Positions 2,620-44,351 of a stretch of DNA of 46,481 nucleotides are shown piece after piece. The first letter of the stretch is position 1, and every line of letters starts with the position of its first letter. Both the position numbers and the translations under genes were made by a program. Below the pieces are notes generated by a model. The model worked only from the letters and a program-made list of their open reading frames with translations. It did no database searches and was not told where the DNA came from. The DNA is from a virus (Duplodnaviria > Heunggongvirae > Uroviricota > Caudoviricetes), in IMG/VR virus record IMGVR_UViG_648861009_000008; one strand, written 5' to 3'.

Positions 2620-3210
2620 ATGTCTCGAATTTTTGCTTACTGTCGGATATCAACGCTGGATCAGACCACCGAAAATCAACGCCGGGAAATCGAAAGTGCA
2701 GGTTTTAAAATCAAACCTCAGCAAATAATCGAAGAACACATTAGCGGCTCAGCAGCAACCAGTGAGCGTCCTGGTTTTAACCGGTTGCTTGCTCGCCTGA
2801 AATGTGGTGATCAATTGATTGTGACAAAACTGGATCGCCTTGGTTGTAATGCAATGGATATCAGGAAAACAGTGGAACAACTGACCGAAACAGGTATCAG
2901 AGTGCATTGCTTAGCATTGGGGGGCATTGACCTGACCAGTCCAACAGGAAAAATGATGATGCAAGTAATTTCAGCAGTCGCTGAATTTGAACGAGACCTT
3001 TTACTTGAACGCACTCATTCCGGGATAGTAAGAGCCCGCGGCGCAGGGAAACGTTTTGGTCGACCACCTGTGTTAAATGAAGAACAGAAACAGGTGGTAT
3101 TCGAACGAATTAAGTCAGGTGTAAGTATAAGTGCCATTGCCCGGGAATTCAAAACCTCGCGGCAAACCATTTTAAGAGCCAAAGCAAAACTTCAGACACC
3201 TGACATATAA
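2620..3210 (+). CDS. pinQ: serine-recombinase DNA invertase (Pin/Gin/Hin family)
   Basis: 196 aa; N-terminal catalytic region [10 protein letters not shown]-terminal HTH; placed next to the tail-fibre genes as in Mu gin and e14 pin. Confidence 0.9.
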
Positions 3211-7528: not shown

Positions 7529-9891
<2,363 letters not shown>

Positions 9892-10730
9892 NNNNNNNNN
9901 NNNNNNNNNNNNNNNNNNNNNNNNNNNNNNNNNNNNNNNNNNNNNNNNNNNNNNNNNNNNNNNNNNNNNNNNNNNNNNNNNNNNNNNNNNNNNNNNNNNN
10001 NNNNNNNNNNNNNNNNNNNNNNNNNNNNNNNNNNNNNNNNNNNNNNNNNNNNNNNNNNNNNNNNNNNNNNNNNNNNNNNNNNNNNNNNNNNNNNNNNNNN
10101 NNNNNNNNNNNNNNNNNNNNNNNNNNNNNNNNNNNNNNNNNNNNNNNNNNNNNNNNNNNNNNNNNNNNNNNNNNNNNNNNNNNNNNNNNNNNNNNNNNNN
10201 NNNNNNNNNNNNNNNNNNNNNNNNNNNNNNNNNNNNNNNNNNNNNNNNNNNNNNNNNNNNNNNNNNNNNNNNNNNNNNNNNNNNNNNNNNNNNNNNNNNN
10301 NNNNNNNNNNNNNNNNNNNNNNNNNNNNNNNNNNNNNNNNNNNNNNNNNNNNNNNNNNNNNNNNNNNNNNNNNNNNNNNNNNNNNNNNNNNNNNNNNNNN
10401 NNNNNNNNNNNNNNNNNNNNNNNNNNNNNNNNNNNNNNNNNNNNNNNNNNNNNNNNNNNNNNNNNNNNNNNNNNNNNNNNNNNNNNNNNNNNNNNNNNNN
10501 NNNNNNNNNNNNNNNNNNNNNNNNNNNNNNNNNNNNNNNNNNNNNNNNNNNNNNNNNNNNNNNNNNNNNNNNNNNNNNNNNNNNNNNNNNNNNNNNNNNN
10601 NNNNNNNNNNNNNNNNNNNNNNNNNNNNNNNNNNNNNNNNNNNNNNNNNNNNNNNNNNNNNNNNNNNNNNNNNNNNNNNNNNNNNNNNNNNNNNNNNNNN
10701 NNNNNNNNNNNNNNNNNNNNNNNNNNNNNN
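9892..10730. other. assembly gap (839 N) hiding the 5' end of J, genes K and I, and the 3' end of L
   Basis: Run of N; flanking ORFs are J (C-terminal part) and L (N-terminal part). Confidence 0.95.
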
Positions 10731-25293: not shown

Positions 25294-25719
25294 ATGGAAG
25301 GTTTACCAATGGCTCAGGCTGCCATTTTTAAAGAAATATTCGATCAAGTGCGTAAAGATTTAAACTGTGAATTATTTTATTCTGAGCTAAAACGTCACAA
25401 TATCTCACTTTATATTTACTATTTAGCCACAGATAATATTCACATTGTGTTAGAAAACGACAACATAGTGTTAGTAAAAGGACTCAAAAAGGTTGTAAAT
25501 GTTAAATTCTCCAGAAACAAACATCTTATAGAGACCTCCTATAATAAGTTGAAATCAAAAGAAATCACATTTCAACAATACAGGGAAAATCTTGCTAAAG
25601 CAGGAGTTTTCCGATGGGTTACAAATATCCAGGAACACCAAAGATATTACTATGCCTTTGATAACTCATTACTATTTACTGAAAGCATCCAGAAAACTAC
25701 ACAGATCTTACCACGCTAA
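25294..25719 (+). CDS. ydfO: DUF1398-family prophage protein (YdfO/YbcV-like); start may be the internal ATG at 25309
   Basis: Translation ...[31 protein letters not shown]...[15 protein letters not shown]... matches YdfO as recalled. Confidence 0.7.
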
Positions 25720-33282: not shown

Positions 33283-33308
33283 ATAAAACAAAAACCCGCC
33301 GAAGCGGG
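33283..33308 (-). terminator. Rho-independent terminator downstream of hokD
   Basis: Minus-strand hairpin CCCGCttcgGCGGG followed by TTTTTGTTTT. Confidence 0.55.
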
Positions 33309-33378
33309 TTAAGTGCGGGTGCGTTGAGGATGCCTGCCACATCAGAGGTGGCGAGGGATTTCTCCCTCGCCGGGTCTC

Positions 33379-33534
33379 TTACTCCTCAGGTTCGTAAGCT
33401 GTGAAGACAGCGACCTCCGTCTGGCCGGTTCGGATTCGTACCTCGCAGAGGTCTTTCCTCGTTACCAGTGCCGTCACTATGACGGTTAAACAGATGACGA
33501 TCAGGGCGATTAACATCGCCTTTTGCTGCTTCAT
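33379..33534 (-). CDS. hokD: Hok/Gef-family type I toxin
   Basis: MKQQKAMLIALIVICLTVIVTALVTRKDLCEVRIRTGQTEVAVFTAYEPEE (51 aa); start codon abuts the N-run. Confidence 0.9.
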   Translation of the reverse strand: MKQQKAMLIALIVICLTVIVTALVTRKDLCEVRIRTGQTEVAVFTAYEPEE

Positions 33535-33535
33535 A

Positions 33536-34715
33536 NNNNNNNNNNNNNNNNNNNNNNNNNNNNNNNNNNNNNNNNNNNNNNNNNNNNNNNNNNNNNNNNN
33601 NNNNNNNNNNNNNNNNNNNNNNNNNNNNNNNNNNNNNNNNNNNNNNNNNNNNNNNNNNNNNNNNNNNNNNNNNNNNNNNNNNNNNNNNNNNNNNNNNNNN
33701 NNNNNNNNNNNNNNNNNNNNNNNNNNNNNNNNNNNNNNNNNNNNNNNNNNNNNNNNNNNNNNNNNNNNNNNNNNNNNNNNNNNNNNNNNNNNNNNNNNNN
33801 NNNNNNNNNNNNNNNNNNNNNNNNNNNNNNNNNNNNNNNNNNNNNNNNNNNNNNNNNNNNNNNNNNNNNNNNNNNNNNNNNNNNNNNNNNNNNNNNNNNN
33901 NNNNNNNNNNNNNNNNNNNNNNNNNNNNNNNNNNNNNNNNNNNNNNNNNNNNNNNNNNNNNNNNNNNNNNNNNNNNNNNNNNNNNNNNNNNNNNNNNNNN
34001 NNNNNNNNNNNNNNNNNNNNNNNNNNNNNNNNNNNNNNNNNNNNNNNNNNNNNNNNNNNNNNNNNNNNNNNNNNNNNNNNNNNNNNNNNNNNNNNNNNNN
34101 NNNNNNNNNNNNNNNNNNNNNNNNNNNNNNNNNNNNNNNNNNNNNNNNNNNNNNNNNNNNNNNNNNNNNNNNNNNNNNNNNNNNNNNNNNNNNNNNNNNN
34201 NNNNNNNNNNNNNNNNNNNNNNNNNNNNNNNNNNNNNNNNNNNNNNNNNNNNNNNNNNNNNNNNNNNNNNNNNNNNNNNNNNNNNNNNNNNNNNNNNNNN
34301 NNNNNNNNNNNNNNNNNNNNNNNNNNNNNNNNNNNNNNNNNNNNNNNNNNNNNNNNNNNNNNNNNNNNNNNNNNNNNNNNNNNNNNNNNNNNNNNNNNNN
34401 NNNNNNNNNNNNNNNNNNNNNNNNNNNNNNNNNNNNNNNNNNNNNNNNNNNNNNNNNNNNNNNNNNNNNNNNNNNNNNNNNNNNNNNNNNNNNNNNNNNN
34501 NNNNNNNNNNNNNNNNNNNNNNNNNNNNNNNNNNNNNNNNNNNNNNNNNNNNNNNNNNNNNNNNNNNNNNNNNNNNNNNNNNNNNNNNNNNNNNNNNNNN
34601 NNNNNNNNNNNNNNNNNNNNNNNNNNNNNNNNNNNNNNNNNNNNNNNNNNNNNNNNNNNNNNNNNNNNNNNNNNNNNNNNNNNNNNNNNNNNNNNNNNNN
34701 NNNNNNNNNNNNNNN
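33536..34715. other. assembly gap (1180 N) hiding the hok regulatory region and the left part of IS5
   Basis: Run of N between the hokD start and IS5 transposase C-terminal coding sequence. Confidence 0.95.
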
Positions 34716-35173
34716 GGGGCGCCACAGCGCGAGGAGCTGGCCGAGGTCGGATGTGGACTGGCTGATCGCCGAGCGACCCCGGCAACGGTAAGAACCTTGA
34801 AACAGCATCCACGCAAGAACAAAACGGCCATCAACATCGAATCCATGAAAGCCAGCATCCGGGCCAAGGTGGAGCACCCATTTCGCATCATCAAGCGACA
34901 GTTCGGCTTCGTGAAAGCCAGATACAAGGGGTTGCTGAAAAACGATAACCAACTGGCGATGTTATTCACGCTGGCCAACCTGTTTCGGGCGGACCAAATG
35001 ATACGTCAGTGGGAGAGATCTCACTAAAAACTGGGGATAACGCCTTAAATGGCGAAGAAACGGTCTAAATAGGCTGATTCAAGGCATTTACGGGAGAAAA
35101 AATCGGCTCAAACATGAAGAAATGAAATGACTGAGTCAGCCGAGAAGAATTTCCCCGCTTATTCGCACCTTCC
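34716..35173 (+). mobile_element. IS5, right-hand ~460 bp (rest in gap); terminal inverted repeat CTTATTCGCACCTTCC at 35158..35173, followed by CTAA
   Basis: Encodes the InsH C-terminus (...[45 protein letters not shown]...RQWERSH) and ends in the IS5 terminal repeat as recalled. Confidence 0.85.
34797..35027 (+). CDS. insH: IS5 transposase InsH, C-terminal fragment
   Basis: Translation matches the InsH C-terminus; the 80 nt between the gap and this ORF encode InsH-like sequence in shifting frames. Confidence 0.8.
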
Positions 35174-35379
35174 CTAACCTTCTAGTCCGCTTTGAGCGAA
35201 AAACAGCCATAATTTAGTGCCACGTATATAATGATAGAGCTATTCAAGCTAGCAATTCACATGTAAAAATTCAGAGGGTAGAAGCACATAGTTATAAATG
35301 TTGGCTCCATCGACAAATTGCGGTCTCAAGTACATTTATTAATGTTGCCCCCGCATTAACAAATCATCAAGGTGACGAC

Positions 35380-37167
35380 ATGGACGATATTAATATCAGC
35401 CTCGACGAACTTAACACTATTGATTTATCCCCCTTAATCCAGAGTAAGCTGCCAGTTACCTGCTTTGATATCACAAAGTATCTTTCTAGCCTAGGTGATG
35501 GAAGAGCGGAGATAAGACTGCTAACCCATATTTGCGGTTTTCACTTTCGTCCCGAAAATCCACAGGTACCATTTGGTCCGTGCTTTCAAAGCAGCCAAGG
35601 TAGATCTGCAATTCCGGATGACATTAACGGGTTGTCGCTGGAGGTACTTTCTCAATTTTGCCCGACGATAGAGCTACCCGAACTTCAAGCTCGTATTGCT
35701 GATACACTTTGGGTTCGTAAAATTGGTGGAATCCGTTTTCCTTTGCTGGCAGTCCGTGCTTATTATGCGTCCAGTATAGCTATTATGACATCGCAAGGGA
35801 CGTGGGTTAGTGCTTTAGAACGCCTAGAGCGTGCGCTTAGGCTGTGTTGTTTTTTTCGAAAGAATACTGATTTCAGGGATGAATTTGATCAGCTTTCGGC
35901 ACATCTACTAGCAGAGTATGAACGTACCAGAGAACAAGGCGATTCACCTTATCCGCTGCGACTCCTGCAACTCGATATCGACTGTAAAGTGAGTGAGCCA
36001 TCTTTTATTGCCCAGGAACTCCTGTTTCTGACAAAAAACTATCTGGCTCAAAAATTATTTTCATTTGCCGTCGATGCCTGTAAAACCGCAATCACGATTG
36101 CGAATAGGTGCTGTGACAGAGATACACAGTTTGAATTCTGGCGGCTTCTTGCCGATACACATCTGGAAGAGTCAAAATTCCAAGATGGCGGTATGATTTC
36201 GGCAGCCTGCATGCAGAATGCTATTGAAGCACTGGCTAATATTCCAGGAACCCGAATAGAACGTCTTGCGCTGTATGAAGAAATGCGTGATTACCAAATC
36301 GAATCCCGTCACCAGATGTCTATCCTTCAGTCTCCCCCTCAAGATATTAGTGAGATTGTCCATCAAGCCAAGAGTCGGGTAGTCGGAAGAGATATGTTTG
36401 ATATGGTTTTCAGACTTGCGATGCTGGTCTGTCGGCCAACCAGCATTGAGAGACTTAAGGCTCAAGCAATAGAACAAAAGGCCAACAGCATAGCTTGGAT
36501 GTTTGGATCAACACATATTGATCATGAGGGAATGACACTTGCTCGCATACCCGCAGGATTGGGGATTGATGATGCAAATGGGGCAGTTATTTGGCCCATA
36601 ATGATGACGAGAATGCGTATCGACCATGAGTTGGCAGTAGCTGGGCAAATTATTCCTGCTACAGATGAGATCACAATGAAATATCCAATCTCGGAGGCGT
36701 TTTTTCGCGATATGTTCATCAATCATCCCTTCATCCCGTTTGGGCATGAAGAGTTTTTCATCAAGGGTATGGTTTGCGGTTTCAATGGAGATTTTATGAC
36801 GGCATGCCACGTGTTGATTCCCCAGATCGAAAATAGTCTGAGATATGTGGCTAAAATTAAAGGTGAGGAACCATCGCAGCTTCACGGGGACGGTTCGCAA
36901 GAGCGAAATGGACTCAAGGGATTACTAGATAATCCACTGATTATTGAAGCTTTCGGCGTAGACATAATTGGCAATCTTCAGGCCTTACTGGTAGATAAAA
37001 TCTATGGTGATTTACGAAATCAACTAGCTCACGGATATGTGCCTGCCGGTTACTACAATCAACCTCCCTGCATTTTTGCATGGTGGCTTGTATTGCACAT
37101 TCTAATGAACCCTACGGCGAGATACTGGCAAGCCACTTATGGCCAAGAGAGTGAGGCTCAGACTTAA
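35380..37167 (+). CDS. orphan 595-aa protein, mostly helical, C-terminal RNxxxH (HEPN-like) motif; candidate abortive-infection/defence effector
   Basis: Intact ORF with AAGGTGA RBS; opposite strand to the phage early operon; AT-rich upstream region; IS5 end 200 bp upstream; GC and codon use lower than flanking phage genes; motif LVDKIYGDLRNQLAHGY near the C-terminus. Confidence 0.7.
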   Translation: MDDINISLDELNTIDLSPLIQSKLPVTCFDITKYLSSLGDGRAEIRLLTHICGFHFRPENPQVPFGPCFQSSQGRSAIPDDINGLSLEVLSQFCPTIELPELQARIADTLWVRKIGGIRFPLLAVRAYYASSIAIMTSQGTWVSALERLERALRLCCFFRKNTDFRDEFDQLSAHLLAEYERTREQGDSPYPLRLLQLDIDCKVSEPSFIAQELLFLTKNYLAQKLFSFAVDACKTAITIANRCCDRDTQFEFWRLLADTHLEESKFQDGGMISAACMQNAIEALANIPGTRIERLALYEEMRDYQIESRHQMSILQSPPQDISEIVHQAKSRVVGRDMFDMVFRLAMLVCRPTSIERLKAQAIEQKANSIAWMFGSTHIDHEGMTLARIPAGLGIDDANGAVIWPIMMTRMRIDHELAVAGQIIPATDEITMKYPISEAFFRDMFINHPFIPFGHEEFFIKGMVCGFNGDFMTACHVLIPQIENSLRYVAKIKGEEPSQLHGDGSQERNGLKGLLDNPLIIEAFGVDIIGNLQALLVDKIYGDLRNQLAHGYVPAGYYNQPPCIFAWWLVLHILMNPTARYWQATYGQESEAQT

Positions 37168-37264
37168 AGTGAATAAGTTTACGAAGTTGGCACTTCCGGA
37201 TGCATGTCCATATGAGTTGAGGCGATTTGGTTAATAAGGTTGAGTGCTGCTGAAATTATTCGAT

Positions 37265-37288
37265 GTCCGCTTTTGGCACAAAGCGGAC
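37265..37288. terminator. hairpin between the convergent 595-aa and 133-aa genes (possible bidirectional terminator)
   Basis: GTCCGCTTT-tggcac-AAAGCGGAC, 9-bp stem. Confidence 0.4.
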
Positions 37289-37385
37289 AACCACGCCAGA
37301 TCTACCCTGTGCCATGAAAAATGAGAATGTCAATTCACTCCTGAACTAATGCTTTTTAATCTAGTAACGTCTAAAATACCTAACA

Positions 37386-37787
37386 TTATCCCTGATAAAA
37401 TGCCAGTATGCGCTGCATAACTTCACTCATCCGGCACTCGCGACAGATTATGTTTAGGCGACTGTCGTAGCGACGTATTTCTCCATCAGGTAACGACCAG
37501 ATAAGGTCCGGATCAACCACAGCTGTTTTCTTCACCTTTGCCCTCGAGAGTTTTTTGCGGGCGTTTTGCCAGTCCTTACGCGCCTGTTCAGACGGGAATA
37601 ACCCGTAGCCGGAGTTGTATACATCGCCACTGGCTACCAGCTCTCTGGCAAGAACGCTCATCAGATATCTAGTCGCACCTGTTTTAGCTTCCAGTTGCCG
37701 TAACGTCTCACGACCGCTCTGGCGCACGAGTTCCACCACCTGCCCTTTAATTTTTTCCCGCTCTTCTTGTGTAAAAACTTTTGCCAC
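37386..37787 (-). CDS. hypothetical protein in the replication operon (133 aa)
   Basis: ORF 40 nt downstream of the O-like gene on the same strand; not recognised. Confidence 0.5.
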   Translation of the reverse strand: MAKVFTQEEREKIKGQVVELVRQSGRETLRQLEAKTGATRYLMSVLARELVASGDVYNSGYGLFPSEQARKDWQNARKKLSRAKVKKTAVVDPDLIWSLPDGEIRRYDSRLNIICRECRMSEVMQRILAFYQG

Positions 37788-37827: not shown

Positions 37828-38847
37828 TTATCCTCTGAAACCAGGCGGAATTTCTGTATCCGGTTCAGAAATATGATTAACACAACGCTGTACAGGTGAA
37901 CGCCCCAGGCGGATGACCAGTTCGTCCCATTTTTCGCGGAGCTTTGACGGGCTCATGATGTTTTTTACCCAGAATGGATCCCGCTGTACCCGACCAAACA
38001 TTTCACAAATTTGTCTGTGGCTTCTGCCATCCAGCATCCGCATTGTGCGCACATCATTGGCCCAGACAGTCCAGTTAGGCTCTTTTGGTCGCATGATCTC
38101 GCCATCATCACTGGCGGCCTGTTCGTAGAGACCCACGATCCGCCCCCATATCCACTGCGCACACGCCAGATCCTCCTGGCTACCCCACTGGCGTTTTTTC
38201 GCACTAAACACAACTGCGCCAGGGTGCCGGATTAAAAAATCCTGTTCAGCCGTCTGCGGGTCCGGTTGCGAAGCTTCCGGACGAAAAGTGTTTTTATTCT
38301 CTGTAGTAATCTCTGTTGTATTCTCTGTAGGATCATCGGGCCATTTTGACCCGATGACATTGGGTCGTTTTGAACCAATGGAGCGTTTCATTTTGACCTC
38401 TTCCATCGTGTCATTTTGACCTGATGGAGCGGCGCATTTTGAACCGATGGATTCGCTCAATTTGCCATCATCTAAAAGCTCGCTTCCATAGTTAATCGTG
38501 TAGAAATTGGTCATATCGCGCTTTGATTTATTGAGCTTTTCACAACGCAAAAGCCCCAGCGTTTTCAGACTTGCAAACGCGCGCTTTAACGTTGACTCTG
38601 ACCAGAATGGGAACTGTTCCAGCCATTGTTCCGTTGTGTTGTAAATCCAGCGAACACCATCACATTCCATGCCGGAATTGGTATCTCTCAACCAGTAATG
38701 CAACTGCTGCAACACAATGGCTTCATTTAAGCCAATCTTCATCGCAAGCTGTGTGTTTATAACCAGTGGGCGTTCAGCAAAAAGAAGGCTCATAATTCCA
38801 TCCAGCTTTTTGTTGGTATTGCTGTCGATACGCAAGTTTGAAAGCAA
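37828..38847 (-). CDS. replication initiator (lambda O-like) with internal origin iterons; true start uncertain (the ORF overlaps the upstream gene by 74 nt)
   Basis: N-terminal helix-rich DNA-binding-like region; five ~23-bp iterons inside the coding sequence. Confidence 0.7.
   Translation of the reverse strand: MLSNLRIDSNTNKKLDGIMSLLFAERPLVINTQLAMKIGLNEAIVLQQLHYWLRDTNSGMECDGVRWIYNTTEQWLEQFPFWSESTLKRAFASLKTLGLLRCEKLNKSKRDMTNFYTINYGSELLDDGKLSESIGSKCAAPSGQNDTMEEVKMKRSIGSKRPNVIGSKWPDDPTENTTEITTENKNTFRPEASQPDPQTAEQDFLIRHPGAVVFSAKKRQWGSQEDLACAQWIWGRIVGLYEQAASDDGEIMRPKEPNWTVWANDVRTMRMLDGRSHRQICEMFGRVQRDPFWVKNIMSPSKLREKWDELVIRLGRSPVQRCVNHISEPDTEIPPGFRG
38343..38451. repeat. origin iterons: five direct repeats of about 23 bp with core (C/G)ATTTTGA(A/C)C(C/T)NATGGA
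   Basis: ccATTTTGACCCGATGa / cgTTTTGAACCAATGGa / tcATTTTGACCtcttcc / tcATTTTGACCTGATGGa / gcATTTTGAACCGATGGa at regular spacing. Confidence 0.7.
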
Positions 38848-44299: not shown

Positions 44300-44351
44300 N
44301 NNNNNNNNNNNNNNNNNNNNNNNNNNNNNNNNNNNNNNNNNNNNNNNNNNN
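44300..44351. other. assembly gap (52 N) between two overlapping copies of the same ~445-bp sequence
   Basis: 43851..44299 and 44352..44798 are near-identical apart from single-base indels. Confidence 0.9.

Follow-up and report, generated by a model that had tools for sequence, protein, structure and literature searches.

A mobile prophage cassette encoding a DUF7380–DUF4209 protein with a HEPN domain, a candidate single-gene anti-phage system of the PDC-S39 family

Introduction

Bacteria can be protected from phages by single proteins whose HEPN domain is a ribonuclease (RNase), and two such systems have been described that are mechanistic analogues of the protein discussed here. HepS, encoded by the Gifsy-1 prophage, is a constitutive and autoinhibited protein that, once triggered by the tail-tip protein J, cleaves tRNA anticodon loops (Nature 2026, PMC13043305). 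DARNA/PD-T7-3 performs abortive infection by tRNA anticodon cleavage, its trigger being single-stranded DNA bound by SSB (bioRxiv 10.64898/2026.02.22.705581). Here we present a gene for a protein of 595 amino acids (aa) found in a stretch of 46,481 nucleotides (nt) from a virus of the Caudoviricetes (IMG/VR record IMGVR_UViG_648861009_000008). This whole stretch, called the window in the following, carries genes for tail, capsid and terminase and amounts to a near-complete lambdoid prophage. We think that the gene probably encodes a stand-alone anti-phage protein of abortive-infection type with a HEPN RNase, carried as cargo of a Qin-like lambdoid prophage.

The family to which the gene belongs has been flagged before by three independent computational studies, in 2013, 2024 and 2026. 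Anantharaman et al. (2013, PMC3710099) described DUF4209 as a HEPN family of the C6orf70 (ERMARD) type, predicted to be catalytically active, which is fused to TPR repeats and has bacterial members in operons related to restriction–modification (RM). Payne et al. (2024, bioRxiv 10.1101/2024.01.29.577857) catalogued PDC-S39 as one of 145 explicitly untested candidates, derived from genes lying inside BREX, DISARM or type I RM systems. Such a setting is how PDC-S39 was discovered, not a requirement for each member. In the supplementary tables of DefensePredictor (2026), E. coli DUF4209 proteins are classed as 'Predicted novel defense gene' with log-odds of 4.3–8.1: 4.3 for WP_021514655.1 (595 aa), about 7.4 for WP_000710784.1 (602 aa) and 8.1 for WP_033814625.1 (617 aa). 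None of these three proteins is in the DefensePredictor table of cloned, tested systems, and the signature motifs of the family were not found in the accessible part of its supplementary text. Strain surveys with PADLOC report PDC-S39 routinely without functional data, for example in O157:H7 ECRC98 and P. aeruginosa PAO1.

Identity of the protein and size of its family

The protein is identical to RefSeq WP_000340970.1, annotated as 'DUF4209 domain-containing protein', and occurs with 100% identity in 145 of 5,426 complete E. coli genomes (2.7%). Both PDC-S39 models of PADLOC match it over aa 43–581 of 595, with E values of 8.4e-103 and 2.6e-102. Two Pfam families exceed their gathering thresholds: PF24098 (DUF7380) at aa 4–166, with 119.3 bits against a cut-off of 27 (E 2.1e-34), and PF13910 (DUF4209) at aa 484–573, with 34.0 bits against 22.3 (E 3.2e-8), the latter match covering profile positions 2–88 of 89. 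By these profile matches the protein is assigned to PDC-S39, a catalogued but unvalidated family of defence candidates, and is neither an orphan nor new. The original prediction, drawn from the DNA letters alone, had called the gene an orphan and had recognised nothing in the N-terminal 450 aa. Neither statement survives, the N-terminus being DUF7380. Membership of PDC-S39 is nevertheless a label and not a function.

The family is large. A word-indexed homology search returned 153 relatives in Enterobacteriaceae, Vibrio, Aeromonas, Shewanella, Pseudomonas and cyanobacteria, nearly all of about 600 aa and with both DUF7380 and DUF4209. In an exhaustive profile search of the representatives of clusters at 50% identity, 7,347 reached E ≤ 1e-3 and 2,792 of them E ≤ 1e-30, and the best 150 could be aligned over their whole length. 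One family member is also encoded on a haloarchaeal plasmid. No NCBIfam model matches the protein, and the PHROGs matches are to families of unknown function only. When the PDB was searched by sequence, neither the full protein nor a profile of its C-terminal domain detected relatives or a solved structure, and a Foldseek comparison of the full-length model with viral structures (BFVD) gave nothing significant. Two findings had been named beforehand as fatal to an anti-phage assignment on sequence grounds: of these, homology to replication or recombination proteins was not found, and a HEPN fold is present, as described below.

Architecture of the protein and conservation of its HEPN motif

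We are confident that the protein has three parts (Table 1): a DUF7380 sub-domain at the N-terminus, a TPR-like alpha-solenoid, and a HEPN domain at the C-terminus. The DUF7380 region has conserved residues at R105, D108 and R151. The solenoid, at about aa 84–312, would act as a sensor or oligomerisation region. The model of the protein contains no transmembrane segment.

The C-terminal domain is confirmed by fold and motif as a HEPN domain of the catalytically active RNase type. It has the four-helix up-down arrangement, and its R-x4-6-H motif has a polar residue after the arginine (R546-N-Q-L-A-H551). The string LRNQLAHGY near the C-terminus, from which an RNase of this kind had been proposed in the first place, is indeed there, and Pfam DUF4209 is the C6orf70-type HEPN family. 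In an alignment of 43 sequences, which reaches down to about 25% identity, no sequence departs from R546, H551 or G552, and only N or H occurs at position 547, giving a family motif L-R-[N/H]-x3-H-G. A second block of equal conservation, with the consensus P-Q-[IVLM]-E-N-S-x-R at aa 481–488, lies in an earlier helix of the domain; Q482, E484, S486 and R488 are invariant in it, and N485 is at least 90% conserved. By analogy with other HEPN RNases, the domain would dimerise, form a composite active site and cleave RNA independently of metals.

The HEPN domain is the most conserved part of the protein, with a median identity of 42% to the query and 29 of 192 columns at least 90% conserved. The least conserved parts are aa 1–83 and 167–312, with 14–21% among distant members, and aa 1–83 together with the solenoid are the fastest-evolving parts of the protein. 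This pattern of a constant effector and a variable sensor supports a role in defence.

A single gene without partner

The gene has no adjacent gene on its own strand, which agrees with PDC-S39 as a single-gene family. Its flanks contain no open reading frame (ORF) of at least 50 aa and no credible small ORF, and neither tandem repeats nor an Rfam RNA family adjoin it. Likewise, neither an antitoxin gene nor a repeated antitoxin RNA, as in type II and type III toxin–antitoxin (TA) systems, was found there. A conserved downstream partner had been suspected in Vibrio and Aeromonas; the candidate was rejected, as the two ORFs of about 160 aa are unrelated and have left no trace in the window.

A mobile cassette in a variable slot of Qin-like prophages

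The gene travels as a mobile 2.1-kb cassette with its own 5' region and 3' hairpin. A conjugative IncF plasmid of Klebsiella carries a copy whose protein is 97% identical, and this plasmid shares with the window exactly positions 35187–37288 at 96.6% nucleotide identity, that is, from the 193 bp of the 5' region through the 3' hairpin. Both hairpin motifs are present in the plasmid cassette. The left motif, degenerate in the window, is an intact hairpin in the Klebsiella copy and in a prophage with other cargo, and the right hairpin begins 97 nt past the stop codon. The two ends share a hairpin of the type GTCCGCT(T)…AGCGGAC, and the window has three occurrences of the 9-mer GTCCGCTTT, against 0.4 expected, all of them at the two cassette boundaries.

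Where a prophage carries different cargo, its homology to the window breaks off at 35199, in the left motif, and is taken up again at 37265, in the right one. The slot holds relBE-ydfV-flxA and remnants of insertion sequences (ISs) in K-12, O157:H7 493/89 and YSP8-1, the last of which also has a methyltransferase of the type II/orphan class. Absence of the gene from the Qin locus of K-12, which had been stated at the outset, is correct, relE-relB-ydfV-flxA filling the slot there. PRO_A-1534 has a 340-aa hypothetical protein at this place. E. coli F070 (NZ_AP023237.1; locus L017, 2005–3354) has a close homologue of PD-T7-1 (PADLOC E 7e-157), beside which an unannotated 314-aa protein is encoded; the defence activity of PD-T7-1 has been validated by experiment (Vassallo et al.). 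The DUF4209 gene, the 340-aa hypothetical protein and the PD-T7-1 homologue are unrelated cargo, and all begin and end exactly at the hairpin motifs. Outside the window, the related hairpin motifs lie at 3173–3196 and 4880–4903 of L014, at about 4884–4907 of L017 (F070), and at 7807–7830 and 9887–9909 of L005.

The gene recurs at the same position in other prophages, adjoining a DUF977 gene in 25 of 25 among the matches listed from complete E. coli genomes. Two annotated identical copies lie between hokD and DUF977 in a Qin-like prophage without IS5. The DUF977 flank itself is present in about 1,600 E. coli genomes. The contents of the slot between hokD and DUF977 suggest that it is a defence/TA hotspot of lambdoid prophages, and the paired hairpin motifs may serve as terminators or insulators, as junctions at which recombination swaps the cargo, or as both. 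No description of a hairpin-bounded slot of Qin-like prophages was found in the literature consulted.

Expression signals and composition

The original prediction had noted a ribosome-binding site and an AT-rich upstream region, and both are borne out: a Shine–Dalgarno sequence AGGTGA lies 4 nt 5' of the ATG, and the GC content upstream is about 40%, compared with 48.7% for the window. A relaxed promoter scan returned candidates only, such as a perfect TATAAT with a poor −35 element. The 5' region that moves with the gene presumably carries its own promoter.

Two other signals noted at the outset stand in part. A lower GC content and rarer codons had been taken as the signature of an acquired gene. 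The direction is right, with GC of 44.7%, GC at third codon positions of 40.3% and 12.4% of rare codons, while the means of 30 other ORFs are 50.3%, 50.3% and 8.6%, respectively. The departure is modest, though, at about 1.1–1.3 standard deviations from those means, and the early-region genes adjoining the gene are similarly AT-rich (GC 43–48%). The predicted downstream hairpin exists as a perfect 10-bp inverted repeat, but it has no T-tract and was not called by the terminator scan; it may act as a terminator or insulator.

Contexts of the family in other genomes

Relatives of the protein occur in P2-like phages. In vB_EcoM-569R9 (locus L003, 5041–6972) a 643-aa PDC-S39 relative is encoded between gpA and gpQ, and ORF612 of P2-EC46 (locus L004, 220–2058), deposited as a hypothetical protein in a record that is a 2.2-kb fragment with ORF612 only, is another. 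The P2-phage relatives are about 23% identical to the window protein and match the same PDC-S39 models. We take the gpA–gpQ interval to be the tin/old variable region of P2, described as a defence hotspot by Rousset et al. Homologues in Enterobacter kobei and Citrobacter freundii lie at other prophage positions, and that of Oleispira has IS elements and group II introns on its sides and lies 6 kb away from a Cap15/CD-NTase (CBASS-like) cluster.

RM, BREX or DISARM association, on which the definition of PDC-S39 was based, is not seen for the window copy, no such genes being nearby. Among nine distant family contexts that were sampled, one is near a CBASS-like cluster and none is inside an RM system. 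In the cyanobacteria Trichocoleus (locus L013, 10001–12348) and Nostoc (locus L020, 8384–10755) the gene overlaps by 4 bp a downstream gene for a PIN-domain protein, which is 73% identical between the two, and several cyanobacterial homologues, including these, carry a C-terminal extension (…SDPWVKF). The cyanobacterial clade may thus have a two-gene variant, DUF7380–DUF4209 plus PIN. Disrupted copies exist as well: IS4 interrupts the gene in NZ_CP070048.1, leaving separate DUF7380 and DUF4209 fragments, and truncated forms of 335–369 aa are common in assemblies.

Anti-phage function and alternative readings

The idea that the gene is an anti-phage candidate acting alone through an RNase of HEPN type at its C-terminus is supported by every computational check that could test it: the motif, the DUF4209 and PDC-S39 matches, and the lack of a partner ORF. 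A role in defence, which we regard as probable, is further supported by the DefensePredictor scores, the relatives between gpA and gpQ of P2 phages, and the presence of relBE and of a PD-T7-1 homologue in the same slot. The mobility of the gene points the same way, since family members are found in the Klebsiella plasmid cassette, in other prophage slots, in IS-rich regions near a CBASS-like cluster and in islets.

We propose the following mechanism, by analogy with the logic shown experimentally for HepS and DARNA/PD-T7-3. The gene would be transcribed from its own promoter in the lysogen, which we infer because it converges on the repressed early operon, and the protein at rest would be autoinhibited. 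Upon infection, the variable N-terminal and solenoid region would recognise a phage-derived trigger, either a protein or a nucleoprotein, which would allow a composite active site of R546 and H551 to form between two HEPN domains or to become exposed. An essential RNA would then be cut without the need for a metal, the likeliest target being the anticodon loops of tRNA and the next mRNA or rRNA, so that translation would stop and the infection would be aborted. From the chemistry of HEPN enzymes, the cut RNA would be expected to carry 2',3'-cyclic phosphate ends.

Several points weigh against this proposal. The trigger, the RNA target and the oligomeric state are pure inference. A strict sigma-70 consensus scan called no promoter upstream of the gene, and the IS5 element 206 bp upstream of the ATG could change expression in the source strain. 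Homologues in V. cholerae, Aeromonas and Pseudomonas lie in small islets among housekeeping genes, without defence neighbours. The eukaryotic DUF4209 branch, ERMARD, is not an immune protein, and for this reason the HEPN fold does not dictate a defence role. Finally, a published test of phage resistance, toxicity or RNase activity for any DUF4209/PDC-S39 member was not found in the literature searched, which took in the P2/P4 preprint of Rousset, a 2026 paper on the P2/P4 hotspots, a domain-centric screen and an RB-TnSeq preprint on O157, although a validation may have been overlooked.

The alternative that survives best, which we nevertheless consider unlikely, is that the gene acts selfishly, as a toxin or a module of addiction type, and stabilises the prophage or plasmid, or competes with other mobile elements, without meaningful protection of the host from phages. 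The HEPN RNase would then arrest growth as a toxin, with the N-terminal domains controlling it in cis. The sharing of the slot with the hokD and relBE toxin systems agrees with this, as does carriage on conjugative plasmids beside IS elements and group II introns, and the IS4-disrupted copy and the truncated forms would be expected of a costly gene. However, no antitoxin gene or RNA was found in the flanks, and post-segregational killing is impossible for a stand-alone toxin without a labile antidote. The embedding of the family in RM, BREX and DISARM systems and its occurrence in the variable region between gpA and gpQ of P2 favour defence. The contrast with abortive infection is also partly semantic, many toxin systems being defence systems.

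It is rather improbable that the gene is a prophage moron whose RNase serves host or phage RNA physiology (stress response, lysogeny control or RNA quality control) instead of immunity. ERMARD, of the same Pfam family, is predicted to work in RNA degradation linked to the endoplasmic reticulum (ER), some homologues stand alone among housekeeping genes, and Qin-type prophages are rich in host-physiology genes, for instance csp genes and dicB. Set against this are the patchy distribution, with only 2.7% of complete E. coli genomes carrying the gene, and the flagging of the family by two independent defence predictors. Moreover, carriage on prophages, plasmids and IS-rich islands, together with cassette exchange against TA and defence genes, is a hallmark of conflict genes. 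Very improbable, in our opinion, is a scaffold or regulator with a non-catalytic, ligand-binding HEPN module like those of MtlR and the C-terminal domain of kanamycin nucleotidyltransferase, since such domains typically lose the Rx4-6H motif, whereas R546 and H551 are invariant in 43 diverse sequences and C6orf70/DUF4209 is listed as catalytically active by Anantharaman et al. (PMC3710099).

If the defence role is confirmed, a family whose clusters at 50% identity have over 7,000 representatives, spanning Proteobacteria, cyanobacteria and one archaeal plasmid, would move from 'candidate' to 'system'. It would supply a new sensor–effector pairing and a first hold on the function of the ERMARD branch in eukaryotes. 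Work on it could conveniently start from the E. coli copy, which is a self-contained 2.1-kb cassette of E. coli and Klebsiella genomes, many of them from human isolates, and the hairpin-bounded slot offers a simple way to mine Qin-like prophages for cargo, possibly including more defence genes.

A wider reading, more tentative than the defence role itself and in our view rather doubtful as a whole, joins three proposals: that PDC-S39 represents a widespread and mechanistically new class of single-protein immune sensor, that ERMARD derives from a bacterial effector, and that the hokD–DUF977 slot is an undescribed hotspot. The DUF7380/TPR-like module may directly recognise a phage component and thereby unlock an ERMARD-type HEPN RNase, and the slot may be analogous to the P2/P4 hotspots, with the GTCCGCT...AGCGGAC hairpins as exchange junctions. 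Human ERMARD is linked to brain malformation. Its descent from an anti-phage effector, if true, would be another link between prokaryotic and eukaryotic immune domains.

Features of the locus and its surroundings

The gene lies, as had been described, on the strand opposite to its neighbours, hokD, the DUF977 gene and the replication-region gene, and between the end of IS5 and the replication genes. The terminal sequence of IS5 is …CACCTTCC, directly followed by CTAA. Position 35174 is the first one homologous to IS5-free prophages, and it is from this that IS5 is placed 206 bp upstream of the ATG; the insertion point is 12 bp outside the left cassette motif. The window contains runs of N at 9892–10730, 33536–34715 and 44300–44351, and the second of these masks most of IS5, including its left end, and the region upstream of hokD (mok/sok).

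Table 1. Coordinates of the cassette, the gene and its domains, and the neighbouring features in the window
Feature	Position	Strand	Remarks
Intact gene, 595-aa protein	35380..37167	+	ATG start; DUF7380 + TPR-like solenoid + DUF4209/HEPN; PADLOC PDC-S39
DUF7380 region	35389..35877	+	aa 4–166; small N-terminal alpha/beta sub-domain and first helical repeats
TPR-like alpha-helical solenoid	35629..36315	+	about aa 84–312
C-terminal HEPN domain	36589..37164	+	about aa 404–595; small beta-hairpin insert at aa 499–509
QIENSLR, second family-wide conserved block	36823..36843	+	earlier HEPN helix
RNQLAH, HEPN R-x4-H catalytic motif	37015..37032	+	R546, N547, H551 (aa 546–551)
Cassette-borne 5' region travelling with the gene	35187..35379	+	candidate −10 TATAAT 35227–35232; Shine–Dalgarno AGGTGA 35370–35375
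Left cassette-boundary motif GTCCGCTTTGAGCGAAAAACAGCC	35185..35208	+	degenerate hairpin in the window
Right cassette-boundary hairpin TGTCCGCTTT-TGGCAC-AAAGCGGACA	37264..37289		10-bp perfect stem; between convergent genes
hokD	33379..33534	-	type I toxin; left backbone neighbour of the slot
IS5 element, visible right part	34716..35173	+	transposase C-terminus 34797–35027; terminal repeat end 35173; then CTAA
DUF977 gene	37386..37787	-	right backbone neighbour of the slot; final gene of the early-right operon
Replication-region gene	37828..38847	-	beyond DUF977

Some side observations were made in the rest of the window. Between rem and hokD, at 33289–33370 (−), there is a sub-threshold Rfam match to the Hfq-binding small RNA isrK, which is too weak to be called (25.7 bits against a gathering score of 50, E 0.014), covering the full length of the model. 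An ORF of 32% GC at 25294–25719 (+) encodes a YdfO-like DUF1398 protein, an ordinary Qin component. At 2620–3210 (+), near the tail-fibre end, lies a gene of the resolvase/invertase family, possibly a Pin-like tail-fibre invertase.

Comparison with known systems

The window protein has the same length class as PDC-S39 and the same DUF7380 + DUF4209 architecture, and nothing substantive separates the two. With the C6orf70/ERMARD family it shares the PF13910 match, the Rx4H motif and the fusion to TPR-like repeats. The eukaryotic members are ER-membrane proteins with a transmembrane helix and a predicted role in RNA degradation (PMC3710099), whereas the window protein is prophage-borne, lacks a transmembrane segment in its model and has the bacterial DUF7380 N-terminus.

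The HepT toxins of HEPN-MNT systems (PDB 7ae2, 8xdj, 5yep) differ in their size of about 130–140 aa, and the sequence identity is 7–11%. HepT is neutralised through AMPylation by a separately encoded MNT antitoxin, and there is no MNT or other partner gene beside the window gene. HepS is similar in being a single HEPN protein encoded by a prophage, but it is a minimal protein of less than 250 aa, tetrameric and devoid of sensor domains at the N-terminus. It was rejected as the identity of the window protein on account of this difference in size and domains and of its different PADLOC family; HepS is also absent from the PDB sequence matches.

DARNA/PD-T7-3 is the best mechanistic analogue, as a single-protein system in which a HEPN RNase is joined to a large alpha-helical solenoid. 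It differs in having 456 aa and the reverse domain order, with the HEPN domain at the N-terminus (aa 1–159) and a Pds5-like domain at the C-terminus. Size and domain order also led to its rejection as an identity, together with the lack of a match to its own PADLOC family; a sequence relationship was not detected. We think that the family of the window protein belongs to a well-known kind, that of the single-protein HEPN abortive-infection systems.

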